From a bacterium (GTDB taxonomy: Bacteria > UBA8248): DNA of 64,000 nt. Of the stretch, positions 4,675 through 10,446 are shown in pieces; positions within the stretch are counted from its first letter, which is position 1; every line of letters starts with the position of its first letter. The stretch is from the NCBI GenBank assembly GCA_965207065.1, contig OZ242260.1:2848001-2912000 (forward strand), read 5' to 3'. The position numbers and the translations under genes were made by a program. The notes under the pieces were generated by a model, which was given only the letters and a program-made list of their open reading frames with translations, was not told the DNA's origin and ran no database searches.

Positions 4675-5520
4675 ATGGCGACAGACGAACTGACGATTCA
4701 TCATGAAGACTTGCGTGGCCGCATTCTCTCAACGGATTCGATGACCTATTTTGACGAAAGGGTTGAAGAACGGGACGTTCTCATTGGAGGCTCTTACGCC
4801 GCACGCATGACGATGGCGTGGGCAATGCGCCTGGGTGCGAGGGCAATCGTTGCCCATGCGGCAGGAGTAGGAAAAGATGACGCGGGTATAAGCGGTCTCC
4901 GGTTGGCCCAGGAATATCATGTGCCTGCATTGGCATGTGAGACAATGTCCGCAAGACTCGCCGTTGGAGTATCCGTTTATGAAGGCGAAGTCGGCCATGC
5001 GAATCAAGTGGCCCAAAGTCTCGGTGTTGAAATCGGTCAATCCATTGCTGAAGCTTCGAAAATTTTGCTCGATGCCGATGTGGGCCGGGAAGTGATTGTG
5101 GAGGAAAGCCTGGATGATAGAATTTATGAGCTAGAGCATTTGCCTGATGGTAACATACGCGCTTCATGGGGAATTCCCGTCCTGCGTTCTATCCAGGAAC
5201 CAAGGCCCCAAGATGTTTTTATCCAAGCCTCGCATTGCGGACTTACTCTCGTACCGCATGTCATGAAGCTTAATTTAAAGGGTGTTATTGCCAATGATGC
5301 AGGACGGGGGAAAGATGACTCCGGCATCGCATCTTTCCCCTACCTGGCGCGGGAGGGGATTGCGGTGGCGGCGGTCGGCGCCATGAGTGCGCGAATTGGT
5401 GATGTGATGAGCACCTGGCAGGAAGGCATTATTTCATGCATGAACGAAGTGGCGGAGAAGCGTGGGGTGCGAGAAGGCATGATGACGCGAGAGGCGGCTA
5501 TCGCAATGCTCAATGCGTAG
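4675..5520 (+). CDS. Conserved hypothetical protein with an internal two-fold domain repeat
   Basis: Halves share AG(V/R)GKDD(A/S)GI...MSAR(L/I)...N(Q/E)VA..(L/R)GV..G motifs. Confidence 0.75.
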   Translation: MATDELTIHHEDLRGRILSTDSMTYFDERVEERDVLIGGSYAARMTMAWAMRLGARAIVAHAAGVGKDDAGISGLRLAQEYHVPALACETMSARLAVGVSVYEGEVGHANQVAQSLGVEIGQSIAEASKILLDADVGREVIVEESLDDRIYELEHLPDGNIRASWGIPVLRSIQEPRPQDVFIQASHCGLTLVPHVMKLNLKGVIANDAGRGKDDSGIASFPYLAREGIAVAAVGAMSARIGDVMSTWQEGIISCMNEVAEKRGVREGMMTREAAIAMLNA

Positions 5521-5538
5521 GATTTACCAGAAATTATC

Positions 5539-5614
5539 TGGTGGAGGTGAGGGGATTCGAACCCCTGACCTCGTGGGTGCGATCCACGCGCTCTCCCATC
5601 TGAGCTACACCCCC
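5539..5614 (-). tRNA. tRNA-Ala (anticodon CGC)
   Basis: Minus strand GGGGGTGTAGCTCAGATGGGAGAGCGCGTGGAT-CGC-ACCCACGAGGTCAGGGGTTCGAATCCCCTCACCTCCACCA; G3:U70 alanine determinant, encoded CCA. Confidence 0.95.
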
Positions 5615-5628
5615 ACAAAAGGAACTTG

Positions 5629-5657
5629 AAGGTAGGCGAAGGAGCTACGGGTGTCAA
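5629..5657 (-). promoter_or_regulatory. Sigma70-type promoter of tRNA-Ala
   Basis: TTGACA (5657-5652), 17-nt spacer, TACCTT (5634-5629) on the minus strand. Confidence 0.7.
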
Positions 5658-5667
5658 GTGAAATAGG

Positions 5668-5960
5668 GAGAGCCGATGAAGAACTCCCCCTAGGAGACTT
5701 CACCGGCTCTCGACCTGCCACAGAGTCCGCCCGTTTCCCCCGCAGCAGGGAGTTGCTTTTGACTAAAGTGGGAGCCAAGGACTCAACCCCTGAGGTATAT
5801 TATCCTTGGCTCCCGATCCTGCTGCAGAGTCCGCCCGTTTCCCCCGCAGCAAGAAAATTCACTGAAATTCCATTTTGGTGAGAGTCGGGGGACAACCCTC
5901 CAAGGATTTTCCCCCGACTCTCGTCCCGTCGCAGAGTCCGCCCGTTTCCCCCACGACGGG
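5668..5960 (-). ncRNA. Three tandem copies of an unassigned two-hairpin structured RNA motif
   Basis: Invariant 20-mer (plus strand AGAGTCCGCCCGTTTCCCCC at 5722, 5826, 5933) enclosed by unit-specific complementary stems, each next to a second 12-14 bp hairpin; all stem mismatches become G-U on the minus strand. Confidence 0.7.
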
Positions 5961-5969
5961 TAAGCTATA

Positions 5970-8900
5970 TCAAGAACATCCACTCGTCGCGCCACAAGTC
6001 ATACATTTCAGGCACGTCCCGTTTCGCACTAAGGTGAACAAACCACAATCGCTGCAAGCTTCCCCCTCATACCCTTTCGCGCGGGCTTCTTCGATGCGTG
6101 AATCAATTGCGGAGCTTGCTTCCGTTATGGGTGTCATCGAAGTTTGGGTGGATTCTGTCTCATAATTCAGACTTATCCGGTCGCTGCGCGGTGCGCTTGC
6201 ATCCGGTCCCGGGAATATGGTTTGAATCTCTTCTTCTTCCTCGGTATCGAATTCCGGAATCTCTTCCTGGGGGCGCCCGATGGTGTCGCTCCTCAAGTCC
6301 TCCGACACGACTTGCGCCAGGTCGTGGCGACCGAGATATGAAACCGCCAGTTCACGGAAGATGTAATCGATGATGGATGTGCTCATCTTGATGTGCGGGT
6401 TGCCCGAGACCATACCCCCCGGCTCGAATCGTGTGAATACGAAGGCATCCACGAATTCATCCAATGGGACGCCGTGTTGGAGCCCCAGCGAAATTGCGAT
6501 GGCGAAACAATTCATGAGGCTTCTGAAGGCAGCGCCTTCTTTGTGCATATCTATGAAAATTTCGCCGATGGAGCCGTCCTCGTACTCACCGGTTCTAAGA
6601 TATACCTTGTGACCGCCAATGACGGCTTTTTGTGTGTATCCACCGCGGCGGGTAGGCAACTTGCGTCTTCTGGACTGGTAAATGATCCGGCGCACAATCT
6701 GCTGGGCTACATGCACGGGGGCACTTTGGGTAGCTGGTTCTTCTTCGCCGATATCACTGAAGAGTTCTGCTTCGCTTTGTGCGGAAAGTGGTTGGCTTAG
6801 TTTCGAGCCATCGCGGTAAATCGCTATGGCTTTGGTCATCCGCTGCCACGATTCGTTGTAGATGTCTAAAATATCTTGAATCGTTGATTCCGCGGGCATG
6901 TTGATGGTTTTGCTGATGGCGCCAGATATGAAAGGCTGCGCCGCCGCCATCATTCGAACATGGGCCATGGGGCTGATGAAACGCTTGCCTTCTCGTCCGC
7001 ATTTGCTCGCGCAATCAAAAACGGCTAGATGCTCTTCTTTTAGGTGGGGCGCCCCCTCAAGCGTCATTTTCCCGCAAACGAAATCATTCGCTTCGCTGAT
7101 TTGTTCTGGAGTGAAACCAATGGCTTCGAGCAGATTCAGGTTCCAGTCGGCTATTTGCGCTTCGCTGAGCCCTAATTGCTCAATGCAGAAGTCATCACCG
7201 AGGGAATGTTTGTTGAAGGCGAACTGGATTTCAAACGCCCCTTCGAGAGCAGCTTCCACTTTTTCCAGAGCCTTGCTCGTAAACCCTTTCTCGTGCAAAG
7301 ACTCTGGATTGATATGAGGAGCATTCGTGAGGGTCCCCCGCCCTCGGCAGTAGGCGACGATTTCGCGGATCTCTTCATCGTCATAGCCTAGATGCCGCAA
7401 GGCAGCGGGAACGGATTGGTTGATGATCTTGAAATAACCGCCTCCGGCCAGTTTTTTGAATTTCACCAAAGCAAAATCCGGCTCGATTCCCGTTGTGTCA
7501 CAATCCATCACCAAACCAATTGTGCCTGTCGGCGCGATGACAGTGGCTTGTGCGTTCCGGTAGCCGTTTCGATAGCCGATGGCCAAAGCATCATCCCACG
7601 CCTCACGCGCCGCTTGGAGAAGATAATGGGGGCAGATTTCCGCAGCGATTCCTGCTGGTGCCTTCGAGAGCATTTCGTATTCTGCCTCCGGCACAGAATA
7701 AGCTGCGCGGCGGTGGTTTCTCAGAACCCGCAACATGTGCTCTTGGTTGTCCTGATACCTTGAGAAAGCGCCCATTTCCCCTGCCATCTCGGCGCTGGTG
7801 GCATACGAGCAGCCGGTCATGATGGAGGTGAGAGCGCCGCACCATGCTTCCGCTTCAAGTGAGTCGTAAGGGATGCCAAGAACCATTAACAAGGTGCCCA
7901 GATTGGCGTACCCAAGTCCTAAAGTTCGATACTCGAATGAGCGTTTGGCTATTTCCGGACTGGGGAATTGCGCCATCAGTACTGAAATTTCGAGGACGAC
8001 TGTCCATAGGCGAATAACATGACGATAGTCTTCTATCTGAAAGTGGTTTTTTTCAGTATCCAAGAATTTTATGAGATTCATCGACGCTAGATTGCATGCG
8101 GTATCATCCAAGAACATGTATTCTGAGCAAGGATTAGAGCCGTTGATGCGACCATCGGCGGTGCACGTGTGCCAGTCGTTGATGGTTGTGTCAAATTGAA
8201 GGCCAGGGTCTGCGCAACACCACGCTGCATATCCAATCTGATTCCAAAGTTCTTTCGAACTGACGGAGTCCGCGATTTCGCCGTCAGTGCGCCGTATCAG
8301 GTTCCAATCCGAGTTTTTCTCGGTAGCTTCCATAAAATCATCTGAAACGCGGATGGAATTGTTCGAGTTTTGACCGGAAACCGAGATGTAGGCCTCGCCT
8401 TCCCAATTTGTATCGAGCTCTTCGAACTCGATTTCGGTGATGCCTTGACGTGCAAGTTGGAGAGTCCGATGGATATAATTATCCGGAACGCCGGCGAGTC
8501 TTGCGGCCCGAATTGCTTTGGTGAGTGATGGGTTTTTATCCGGCTGGTACAAGTTGCCATTCAAGCTCAGGTTCTTTCCTTCCAGGCAAGCCCCGAGAAT
8601 GGCGTTCATGTGCCGGTTGCACATCTTGCTGCCCGAAACCAGGGCGGCCACTTTCTGTTCTTCGTGCACCTTCCAGTTGATGAATTCCTCGATGTCGGGG
8701 TGGTCGATGTCGAGCGTGACCATTTTCGCCGCGCGCCGAGTGGTGCCGCCCGACTTGATCGCGCCCGCGGCGCGATCCCCAATCTTGAGGAAACTCATGA
8801 GGCCGGAGCTTCTTCCACCTCCTGAGAGAGATTCCCCCTCCGCTCTCAAATTCGAGAAATTCGTGCCGGTGCCCGAGCCGTATTTGAAAATGCGCGCCTC

Positions 8901-9566
8901 GCGCGTCCATAAATTCATGATCCCGCCCTCGTTGACGAGATCATCTTTCACCGATTGGATGAAGCACGCATGCGGTTGAGGACGCTCATAGGCGTTGGTG
9001 GAGCGGAGTATTTCCCCGCTTTCGGGATCGCAATAAAAATGTCCCTGGGCGGGGCGCGTGATGCCGTAGGCCCAGTGCAGGCCCGTATTGAACCACTGTG
9101 GCGAGTTGGGGGCCGCCATCTGGCTCGCTAGTATGTATAAAAGCTCCTCATAGAACGCTTTGGCGTCTTTTTCCGCGTGAAAATAACCGTGTTTCCAGCC
9201 CCAATAGGTCCAGCATCCCGCCAGGCGATGGAAAACGTCCCGGGCGTCGCGCTCGCTTCCGAATCGCTCATCCTCGGGCAGGGACTCAAGTTTTTCCGTG
9301 TCCGGCTCCGAGCGCTGCAGCCATTCGGGCACTCCCTCTTCGGAAACTTTGTTTAAATGTGTGGGGACGCCGGCTTTTCGGAAGTATTTTTGCGCTAGAA
9401 TGTCGACGGCCACCTGAGACCAGCTCTCAGGCGCCATGATGTCCTTCGCTTCGAAGACGACCGAGCCGTCCGGGTTGGTGATGCGCGAGGTGCGCGGCGT
9501 GAAACCGACCTCGCCGTACGCGTCATCTCCGGCCCGGGTGAATCGCCTCGTAAACTCCACGCCCAT
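5970..9566 (-). CDS. nrdJ: Adenosylcobalamin-dependent (class II) ribonucleotide reductase with C-terminal TSCPD-like domain and zinc ribbon
   Basis: [62 protein letters not shown]-terminal CSDC...[14 protein letters not shown]. Confidence 0.97.
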
Positions 9567-9630
9567 TCTCCTCCGCTAGGAACGCCCCGCTATGCCGGGG
9601 TCATATTTAGTATGGCGAAATCAAGCGGCA

Positions 9631-9646
9631 ACACTAAATGTAGTAT
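9631..9646. promoter_or_regulatory. Putative NrdR box overlapping the nrdJ -10 region (second candidate box at 9716-9731)
   Basis: ACACTAAATGTAGTAT resembles the NrdR consensus acaCwAtATaTwGtgt; minus-strand TTGACA (9666-9661), 18 nt, TACATT (9642-9637). Confidence 0.65.
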
Positions 9647-10446
9647 GCTTTGCCCCCGTCTGTCAATACCCTGAAAACGGATATACACAAAATATATGCG
9701 ATTACCCACACCTTATCCCCAAATATTGTGTTTTCCTGTGGAAAACCGGCGCAAACAGGAAAACAAGGGCTGAAAACCGCTTCGCCGCCCCACGCAGCCT
9801 CGATTTCCGGAGCCTCGGCGCGCCTTGAATCGGGGGCGCAGGAGCGCGTGAACTCAAAGAGCGTGGCCGCCGGCCGGCGCGCTTTTGCCGCGCAGAACAA
9901 GCACCGGAAACGCCCGCAAACATGCTCCGGATGCGCCCGGAAGAGCGTCTGAAATTTATCGAAAAACCCCGTGAATTTATCTGTATTTATCGTATTTTTC
10001 GGAATTGTTCAGGGGTGATTGTCCTCGACTTCGCCGCCCCGGCCGCGTCCCGATGACTCCCTCTCTCACGCACTGACGACATGTCTGGAGAGTCATCGAA
10101 CGGGCCGATCTCCCGGCGGCGAGGCGCGGTTGCAAGAGCGAAGACCGCGCGTCGAGCAGGAGGATGGTACACCTTTCCGGAACGCGCACCTGCGGGGAAA
10201 TGCGCGCTTCCCGGCGGCGGACCTCATCGGCGCGCGCGCCCTCATCACCCAGGCGCTCGATGAGCGGGCCGCAAGTTTCCGCGAACGCTTCGGCATCCGC
10301 GCGTTCTCGGAGCGCGAGTCGCTCATGCTGCTGTTGAGGATATCGGAGTCGAGAGACGTGTTTTAGGGCAGGGCGTGCACGGATTCGAGGATAGGCGGCT
10401 TGGCGCAAGGTTGGCTGAGCGATGGATTATCGCAGCTACGCACCGC

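Follow-up and report, generated by a model that had tools for sequence, protein, structure and literature searches.

Directly behind nrdJ, a gene for a class II ribonucleotide reductase, the 64,000-nucleotide (nt) stretch of contig OZ242260.1 analyzed here (the window) carries a tandem array of structured RNA modules. Three modules of 81-85 nt lie head-to-tail on the minus strand, 3' of nrdJ, at positions 5668-5960, as read from the sequence. On the nrdJ strand the array forms a structured RNA whose pairing is under selection and whose loop is invariant, and the element is kept throughout one family of Nitrospinota-type bacteria. It is a new structured-RNA family of a broadly known kind, and a member of no family tested. 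Ribonucleotide reductase sets the supply of DNA building blocks, and its control in bacteria is known mainly at the promoter, through NrdR, and by allostery of the enzyme; in the literature searched, no post-transcriptional layer on top of NrdR-type promoter control is described for a bacterial reductase. A covarying element fixed to the 3' end of nrdJ across a whole family points to unrecognized post-transcriptional control, or to a regulatory RNA coupled to the reductase.

Two covarying hairpins and an invariant loop

Each module consists of hairpin 1, a 2-nt linker and a long hairpin 2. The first module begins 9 nt after the nrdJ stop codon, and the module periods are 107 and 104 nt, leaving spacers of merely 20-25 nt. 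Hairpin 1 of all three modules contains the exact 20-mer GGGGGAAACGGGCGGACUCU, the copies of which (GGGGGAAACGGGCGGACTCT) were found at 5933-5952, 5826-5845 and 5722-5741; three matches compare with 0.01 expected, and none of 100 shuffles gave three. An earlier note on this DNA had described the coordinates, the stem sequences, the periods, five G-U pairs in the outer stems and the distance from the stop codon, and our reading of the sequence confirmed all of them. The parts of the array, all on the minus strand, are as follows.

5880..5960, minus strand: module 1 (type A), fold -54.1 kcal/mol, z -6.6, covariance-model match 97.8 bits; hairpin 1 at 5925-5960, linker at 5923-5924, hairpin 2 at 5880-5922, 3' flank ACCAAAA
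5933..5952, minus strand: invariant 20-mer of module 1, GGGG and CUCU paired, 12-nt loop GAAACGGGCGGA
5855..5879, minus strand: A/U-rich spacer 1, ACCAAAAUGGAAUUUCAGUGAAUUU, conserved only at its ACC[A/G] start
5770..5854, minus strand: module 2 (type B), fold -50.6 kcal/mol, z -6.7, covariance-model match 80.3 bits; hairpin 1 at 5817-5854, hairpin 2 at 5770-5814
5826..5845, minus strand: invariant 20-mer of module 2
5750..5769, minus strand: A/U-rich spacer 2
5668..5749, minus strand: module 3 (type C, the last), fold -50.0 kcal/mol, z -5.8, covariance-model match 87.1 bits; hairpin 1 at 5714-5749, hairpin 2 at 5668-5711
5722..5741, minus strand: invariant 20-mer of module 3
5692-5664, minus strand: terminator-like site from the signal scan, overlapping module 3
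5658-5667, minus strand: pyrimidine-/U-rich tail CCUAUUUCAC, directly 3' of module 3

Each unit, when folded alone, gives two hairpins, with energies between -50 and -54 kcal/mol and z values between -5.8 and -6.7; none of 200 shuffles was as stable. Within the 20-mer, and beyond what the earlier note had described, GGGG is paired to CUCU (G-U, G-C, G-U, G-C), which gives hairpin 1 twelve pairs and a loop of 12 nt, and hairpin 2 is a very stable helix of 19-20 bp. The five G-U pairs in the outer stems are A-C on the plus strand, and the plus strand of the units is about 14-18 kcal/mol less stable than the minus strand. When the whole array was folded, modules 1 and 2 appeared as predicted, while the minimum-free-energy structure replaced hairpin 1 of module 3 by a pairing with downstream sequence that is not conserved.

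To evaluate covariation, 62 distinct units were collected from 28 loci of related genomes, one broken unit (L029:1605-1707) was dropped, and the remaining 61 were aligned by MAFFT without the use of structure. RNAalifold returned the two-hairpin fold from this alignment, with 23 of its 29 pairs changed on both sides in a compensatory manner. Paired cells made up 97.1% of 1765, compared with 48-56% when the partners were slid by 1-3 columns, and 0 of 500 shuffles reached the observed values on any of five measures. A set of 26 distinct metagenome units showed compensatory changes in 19 of 29 pairs and 97.3% paired cells, in an alignment made to the covariance model, which leans toward that model. 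G-U cells numbered 262 and A-C cells 6 (154 and 6 without the two fixed G-U columns), and because G-U far outnumbers A-C, the folded molecule is the sense strand of nrdJ. On the nrdJ strand the covariance model scored 60-100 bits, compared with 31-40 bits on the opposite strand. The covariation and the excess of G-U bear out what the earlier note had proposed from three units, namely a structured RNA on the nrdJ strand, with pairing under selection and an invariant loop.

The anatomy of the module across relatives rests on 84 distinct units. Positions 9-17 of the 20-mer (CGGGCGGAC) and the C at position 19 were unchanged in all 84; G2-G4, A8 and U18 were changed in 3 units at most, and positions 1, 5, 6 and 7 were variable. 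Stems and spacers vary while CGGGCGGAC stays fixed, among relatives in which the identity of the nrdJ protein goes down to about 69-75%. Covariation extends over almost the whole of hairpin 2 and, in hairpin 1, over the eight outer pairs; the tip of hairpin 2 keeps C-U-[NGG]-R-G, in which U-G or U-A closes a triloop. The loop of hairpin 1 ends in GGA, at the edge of its 12 nt, and the tip of hairpin 2 has GGA in some units only.

Arrays hold 1-4 copies per genome, built from three unit types in a fixed order. Among 45 distinct arrays, a few of them truncated and one a chance match, 33 have ACC[A/G] and then A-rich sequence behind the first unit, and 33 have a U-rich flank behind the last. The middle unit has no hairpin 1 in L010, L017 and L018, and the single unit of L016 combines a type-A hairpin 1 with a type-C hairpin 2, and these losses and this hybrid indicate unequal recombination through the invariant core.

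An alternative reading takes the modules for nothing more than terminators in tandem, or for an insulator that separates a highly transcribed nrdJ from the tRNA gene behind it, with the loop kept only by homogenization between copies. Hairpin 2 is terminator-like and coincides with a site in the scan, the U-rich tail after the last unit is common, unequal recombination between copies is evident, and a sister family (f4) has plain GC-rich hairpins after nrdJ. However, the loop is invariant across genera and also in single-copy genomes (L016, L032, L033), where homogenization cannot act. Hairpin 1 is unneeded for termination, first units are followed by ACCAAAA and not by a U tract, and the single module of genus g5 is without any U tract, all of which makes termination alone an improbable account of the array.

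Distribution, linkage to nrdJ and comparison with known families

In the window's own closed 4.48-Mb genome there are three copies of the module, all at the nrdJ locus. Searched with the covariance model, 37 of the order's 44 genomes were positive, with 96 units altogether, and every positive genome belongs to the same family (the window's genome and 36 of 41 other members); the matches of a genome are confined to a single locus and a single strand. The one genome available from each of the order's two other families gave no model match, and the phylum, of 51 genomes in total, has one further family, whose seven genomes gave none either. A covariance-model search of relatives was the check that the earlier note had put forward, and it was positive in 37 of 42 family genomes, with nrdJ as the gene context at every genuine locus checked. 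The five negative family members are assembly gaps: two short-read assemblies, L180 (G018) and L181 (G031), break 10 and 41 nt past the nrdJ stop codon, at the array, and in the other three the nrdJ C-terminus was not found at all. Because the repeats seem to fragment assemblies, absence of the motif from draft genomes is not meaningful, and a practical warning follows, since short-read assemblies are broken exactly at this locus.

We also scanned 185,579 species' genomes with a sequence pattern, which listed 80 loci of 108 stretches reported. Model matches were present in 25 of the 80 listed loci, in records labelled Nitrospinota, Nitrospinaceae, 'Tectomicrobia' or 'bacterium', and single pattern matches in Streptomyces and others are due to chance. 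The metagenome pattern scan gave 75 loci, 17 of them with model matches. In viral contigs there were two pattern matches, neither of which was a model match, and a phage origin of the module was rejected on this ground.

The linkage to nrdJ is strict. At 27 of 27 genuine genome loci, and at all 15 metagenome loci with upstream sequence (two others being cut at the edge), the array comes straight after the C-terminus of nrdJ on the same strand; L005 and L031, which have neither hairpins nor nrdJ, were excluded as chance matches. tRNA-Ala(CGC) follows the array at 22 of the 27 loci by ARAGORN, and at L006 by Rfam, and in genus g5 the single module is followed by a convergent gene. Since the downstream neighbor varies (tRNA, small open reading frame, transposase-like open reading frame or convergent gene), the element belongs to nrdJ and not to the tRNA. 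The nrdJ stop codon is TGA, TAA or TAG, depending on the genome, and lies 9-17 nt before the array; a selenocysteine or readthrough signal was rejected because of this variety.

The sister family f4 has a shorter nrdJ subtype (971-992 amino acids, about 55% identity) with plain GC-rich hairpins downstream, and no divergent module was found behind its nrdJ at E values up to 1. The RNA module goes with the long NrdJ subtype. Relative to f4 NrdJ (L172-L174), the NrdJ of the module-bearing family has four insertions of about 30-95 amino acids, and an RNA-binding insert in this protein was rejected because the insertions hold no recognizable RNA-binding domain.

Repetitive extragenic palindromes (REPs) and miniature inverted-repeat transposable elements are ruled out by one locus per genome, with three copies in the closed genome and no scatter, and a clustered regularly interspaced short palindromic repeat (CRISPR) array by the finding that the stretches between the invariant cores are conserved, paired hairpins common to several species. 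A broader explanation at the DNA level would have the units act as single-stranded DNA hairpins in recombination or transposition, or be the remnant of a mobile element. The excess of G-U, read as G-T wobble, would also suit single-stranded DNA, copy number changes by recombination, and one arm of a REP-like palindrome in this genome has the sequence of the core, CGGGCGGAC. Yet the locus is always co-oriented with nrdJ and scattered copies are absent, no recombinase is conserved beside the array, the viral scan gave no true match, and the REP-like element, found in 17 of the genus's 23 genomes only, is missing from every other genus that has the module. We regard an action at the DNA level as scarcely credible.

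The REP-like palindrome itself, GTAGGGGCGGACC-N6-GTCCGCCC, is present in 17-18 copies in this genome (e.g., G000:C1:2831758-2831779 and 2831829-2831850) and in 11-86 copies in 16 of 22 congeners, and was not found in the other genera of the phylum that were searched. A link between it and the module through the shared CGGGCGGAC was considered and rejected: the palindrome is found in part of one genus and the module family-wide. Being confined to one genus, the palindrome is unrelated to the module, and the shared arm is apparently a coincidence.

Against Rfam 15, only tRNAs scored above the gathering threshold, both in the window and at the loci of seven relatives. At E values up to 10, positions 5450-6100 gave merely chance matches to miRNA-like and RNase-P-like hairpins far below threshold, and nothing was detected upstream of nrdJ within the window, the side on which the earlier note places a published nrdJ RNA motif. 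The earlier note did not recognize the element as a known riboswitch, ribozyme, CRISPR or REP, and the lack of an Rfam 15 match, the single locus and the conserved intervening hairpins agree with this. That note had also set out beforehand what would speak against it, and we found no Rfam match, no scatter, strong covariation, and contigs from RNA libraries over the array. A known riboswitch class is rejected both by the lack of an aptamer match in Rfam and by position, the element being 3' of nrdJ at all 27 and 15 loci and not in a 5' leader. The literature searched (supplements excepted) contains nothing on this motif.

A related question is whether the array could be a riboswitch-like sensor at the 3' end, in which a small ligand, nucleotide- or B12-related, would alter 3'-end stability through the ligand-bound fold. 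Invariant unpaired nucleotides on covarying helices, attached to a metabolic gene, would suit such a sensor, and the tandem layout may recall cooperative tandem aptamers. In contrast, a fold of two simple hairpins, in which junctions, internal loops and complementarity between the loops are all lacking, leaves little room for a pocket, Rfam gave no riboswitch match even at E values up to 10, the element is downstream of its gene, and no conserved alternative pairing was seen (a GACUCU/AGAGUC alternative exists in some units only). We consider ligand sensing highly improbable.

Transcription and a possible role in the nrdJ message

The promoter scan found no promoter-like site inside the array, from which we take it that the array is part of the nrdJ transcript. 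Four RNA libraries, as assembled contigs, were compared with positions 5300-7300 of the window. In one study, RNA contigs from X15 (5561-5970) and X16 (5603-6031) cover the whole array and join it to the tRNA and the end of nrdJ. In two other studies, the contigs over the nrdJ 3' end both stop at 5915, 8 nt into hairpin 2 of module 1 and without loose ends, which hints weakly that the RNA has a 3' end at module 1. Contig depth, a poor measure, was 9.0 and 7.9 over the array and 3.6-10.6 over pieces of nrdJ. Modules 2 and 3 were without contig cover in runs X17 and X18, as was much of nrdJ, so that this is no evidence of absence.

Base-pairing targets of the loop were also sought. The reverse complement of the core had no conserved second 12-nt site in the 42 family genomes, with 0-3 extra sites per genome, like the control. 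Loop duplexes with 13,013 crudely called 5' regions showed no excess over a reversed-loop control, and complements in the genome numbered 640 versus 754 for the reversed control with 8-mers, and 154 versus 173 with 9-mers. Because neither a conserved complementary site nor an excess of duplexes was found, protein recognition is favored over base pairing.

We tentatively propose that the module acts, as part of the 3' untranslated region (3' UTR), on its own nrdJ mRNA, with hairpin 1 docking a sequence-specific factor and hairpin 2 forming or protecting the 3' end. The array would be the structured tail of the message. Hairpin 2 of the last module, with the U-rich tract, would probably terminate transcription, and hairpin 2 elsewhere would block 3'-to-5' exonucleases. 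Hairpin 1 would present the invariant A-CGGGCGGAC on a fixed G-U/G-C/G-U/G-C helix top as the docking site for a factor encoded elsewhere in the cell, most likely a protein, whose binding would set the survival or end point of the reductase message. Tandem duplication, by unequal recombination through the invariant core, would multiply the docking sites to the 1-4 seen per genome. An action in cis is suggested by the absolute linkage to nrdJ, whatever lies downstream, and by a loop that is invariant even in single-copy genomes, together with the terminator-like hairpin 2, the lack of a separate promoter and the failure to find a base-pairing target. If true, docking of a protein would amount to a post-transcriptional layer on top of NrdR-type promoter control.

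The closest parallel is eukaryotic. The 3' UTR of the transferrin-receptor mRNA carries tandem iron-responsive elements (IREs) bound by the iron regulatory protein (IRP), and there, as here, serial hairpins with an invariant loop on covarying stems and A/U-rich separators sit in the 3' UTR of a message from a metabolic gene. The likeness would be one of mode of action and not of homology: in the array the loop is invariant, the stems covary and the hairpin recurs along the 3' UTR. The two differ in the domain of life, in the loop (12 nt in the module and a hexaloop with a C bulge in the IRE), in the second long hairpin that the module adds, and in the docking factor, which is putative for the array and is IRP for the IREs. 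One specific version, which we think unlikely, would carry the logic of the IRE/IRP pair or of the histone stem-loop over to bacteria and to the supply of DNA precursors: a sequence-specific RNA-binding protein, possibly a moonlighting enzyme or a sensor of deoxynucleotide or B12 status, could bind the invariant loops and tune the lifetime of the reductase mRNA. With respect to 3'-end fate, the module also resembles REPs, bacterial interspersed mosaic elements and the lambda sib retroregulator, which are stable hairpins just behind a gene that stabilize or destabilize the message upstream, and its hairpin 2 is long enough for an RNase III substrate. However, REPs are dispersed in tens to hundreds and the module has one locus, and neither REPs nor sib have a conserved large loop.

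Several points weigh against the proposed action on the nrdJ message. No binding protein was identified and none is encoded beside the array, and the usual bacterial hairpin binders are not candidates, since CsrA, Hfq and ProQ were not found. The RNA contigs give no RNA ends, strand or abundance, and DNA carry-over is possible. The target scans that favor a protein were crude, with exact 12-mers, self-made calls of open reading frames and one genome. A mere mRNA stabilizer or terminator needs no invariant loop, and multiple identical modules would equally suit a product that acts on other molecules.

Such a product is the subject of a different explanation, in which the tail would be cut in its A/U-rich spacers into units of ~85-105 nt that act away from nrdJ as 3'-UTR-derived small RNAs (sRNAs) or decoys. 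Each unit would join a seed-bearing hairpin to a protective 3' hairpin, and would pair through the G-rich loop or soak up a protein, coupling another process to reductase expression. The architecture fits this explanation as well as it fits an action in cis. A conserved unpaired loop followed by a terminator-like hairpin, with the loop invariant and the stems free, is the pattern of 3'-UTR-derived sRNAs; copy number varies, the spacers are A/U-rich, and with no promoter of its own an array that is present in RNA libraries would follow nrdJ in expression. Bacterial sRNAs such as CpxQ, SroC and GlnZ share the 3' UTR of a protein-coding gene, the lack of a separate promoter and a conserved unpaired segment followed by a terminal hairpin. 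However, these sRNAs are single-copy, mostly Hfq- or ProQ-dependent and have known targets, whereas the modules come in 1-4 tandem copies and had neither a conserved target nor, in the closed genome, an Hfq or ProQ gene. Searches of that genome with Hfq (PF17209), ProQ (PF04352) and CsrA (PF02599) gave no match, and the control genomes were positive. The scans for complements, with duplex energies matching the reversed control and 8-mers falling below theirs, likewise argue against sRNAs, as do an array contig depth near that of nrdJ and two libraries that cover nrdJ without modules 2-3. We consider processed units of this kind the main rival, only somewhat less likely than the action in cis.

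A sponge for CsrA deserves separate mention. The CsrB and RsmZ sponges have repeated hairpins with a G-rich loop motif, and the module loop contains GGA, but the modules are much larger, have no free-standing gene and no Rfam match, and the CsrA gene was not found. Tandem arrays of sRNAs are known in cyanobacteria, where the NsiR1 copies are head-to-tail short structured RNAs that vary in number between relatives; in contrast to the modules, with spacers of 20-25 nt and no promoter-like site, each NsiR1 copy has its own promoter and terminator. Among the functions offered in the earlier note, namely a multicopy sRNA, a sponge, or a ligand- or protein-binding module, support is lost for a sponge of CsrA type and for an sRNA dependent on Hfq or ProQ. 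Whichever function applies, the element can enter RNA family catalogues, since it is a small modular unit with clear limits, for which there is already a covariance model.

Neighboring features and minor observations

The features around the array, all on the minus strand, are as follows.

5970..9566, minus strand: nrdJ, class II B12-dependent ribonucleotide reductase, 1198 amino acids (Pfam PF02867, PF08471, PF12637)
9637..9666, minus strand: promoter-like site of nrdJ, TTGACA, 18 nt, TACATT (promoter scan)
5539..5614, minus strand (the nrdJ strand): tRNA-Ala (CGC), CCA encoded (Rfam and ARAGORN)
5629..5657, minus strand: promoter-like site before the tRNA, TTGACA at 5652-5657, 17 nt, TACCTT at 5629-5634 (sequence read)

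The site at 9637-9666 is the only promoter-like site found upstream of the array on the minus strand. Near it, at 9600-9745 on the minus strand, A/T-rich near-palindromes such as CATACTACATTTAGTGT and CATACTAAATATGAC flank and overlap TTGACA-18-TACATT, and from their sequence we take them to resemble NrdR boxes. The site at 5629-5657, which probably works as a promoter, is kept in congeners, and was missed by the consensus scan owing to its weak -10 hexamer.

Other resemblances were considered. Dual hairpins bound by ANTAR proteins have AxxGxx hexaloops and the module loops are 12 nt and 3 nt; a search for ANTAR (PF03861) gave no match, but it gave none in any control genome either and is uninformative. 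Pairing of the loop GCG with the CGC anticodon of the tRNA-Ala was set aside, since it amounts to 4 pairs at most and the tRNA is not always adjacent. A G-quadruplex is rejected because the fourth G tract is missing in genus g5, a likeness to cobalamin riboswitches (GGUGAAG) because it falls in a variable, covarying part of the stem and has no Rfam match, and coding potential because the periods, 104 and 107, are not multiples of three. The RNA close to nrdJ that PMC1242208 describes in cyanobacteria is unrelated.

The loop (ACGGGCGG) could pair with a 16S rRNA stretch, ACACCGCCCGUCA, that occurs once in the genome, but 8 nt is chance level and the flanks are unpaired. The 10-nt identity of ACGAGAGUCG with 16S rRNA just downstream is limited to some units of one genus and is a coincidence. 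The region concerned (G000:C1:1915535, ...ACACCGCCCGUCACACCACGAGAGUCG...) holds the 8-nt loop complement and, some bases later, the 10-nt identity with the start of module 1 hairpin 2.

Downstream of the array, genus g9 has a conserved small open reading frame of ~80-85 amino acids (...WLTPE...EA-SYPL-TGGWAAEARVG...) on the same strand, between the array and tRNA-Ala, at about 1920-2160 in L006 and about 1610-1865 in L007 (motif-strand coordinates). At L024, a transposase-like open reading frame of 297 amino acids (about 1699-2589, opposite strand) replaces the tRNA-Ala neighbor, which suggests an insertion right behind the array. Finally, the ACC[A/G] right after hairpin 2 of module 1 (5875-5879 in the window) is kept across genera and resembles a tRNA acceptor end, in which a helix is followed by ACCA; that RNase P or CCA-related processing may occur at this flank is merely a thought.

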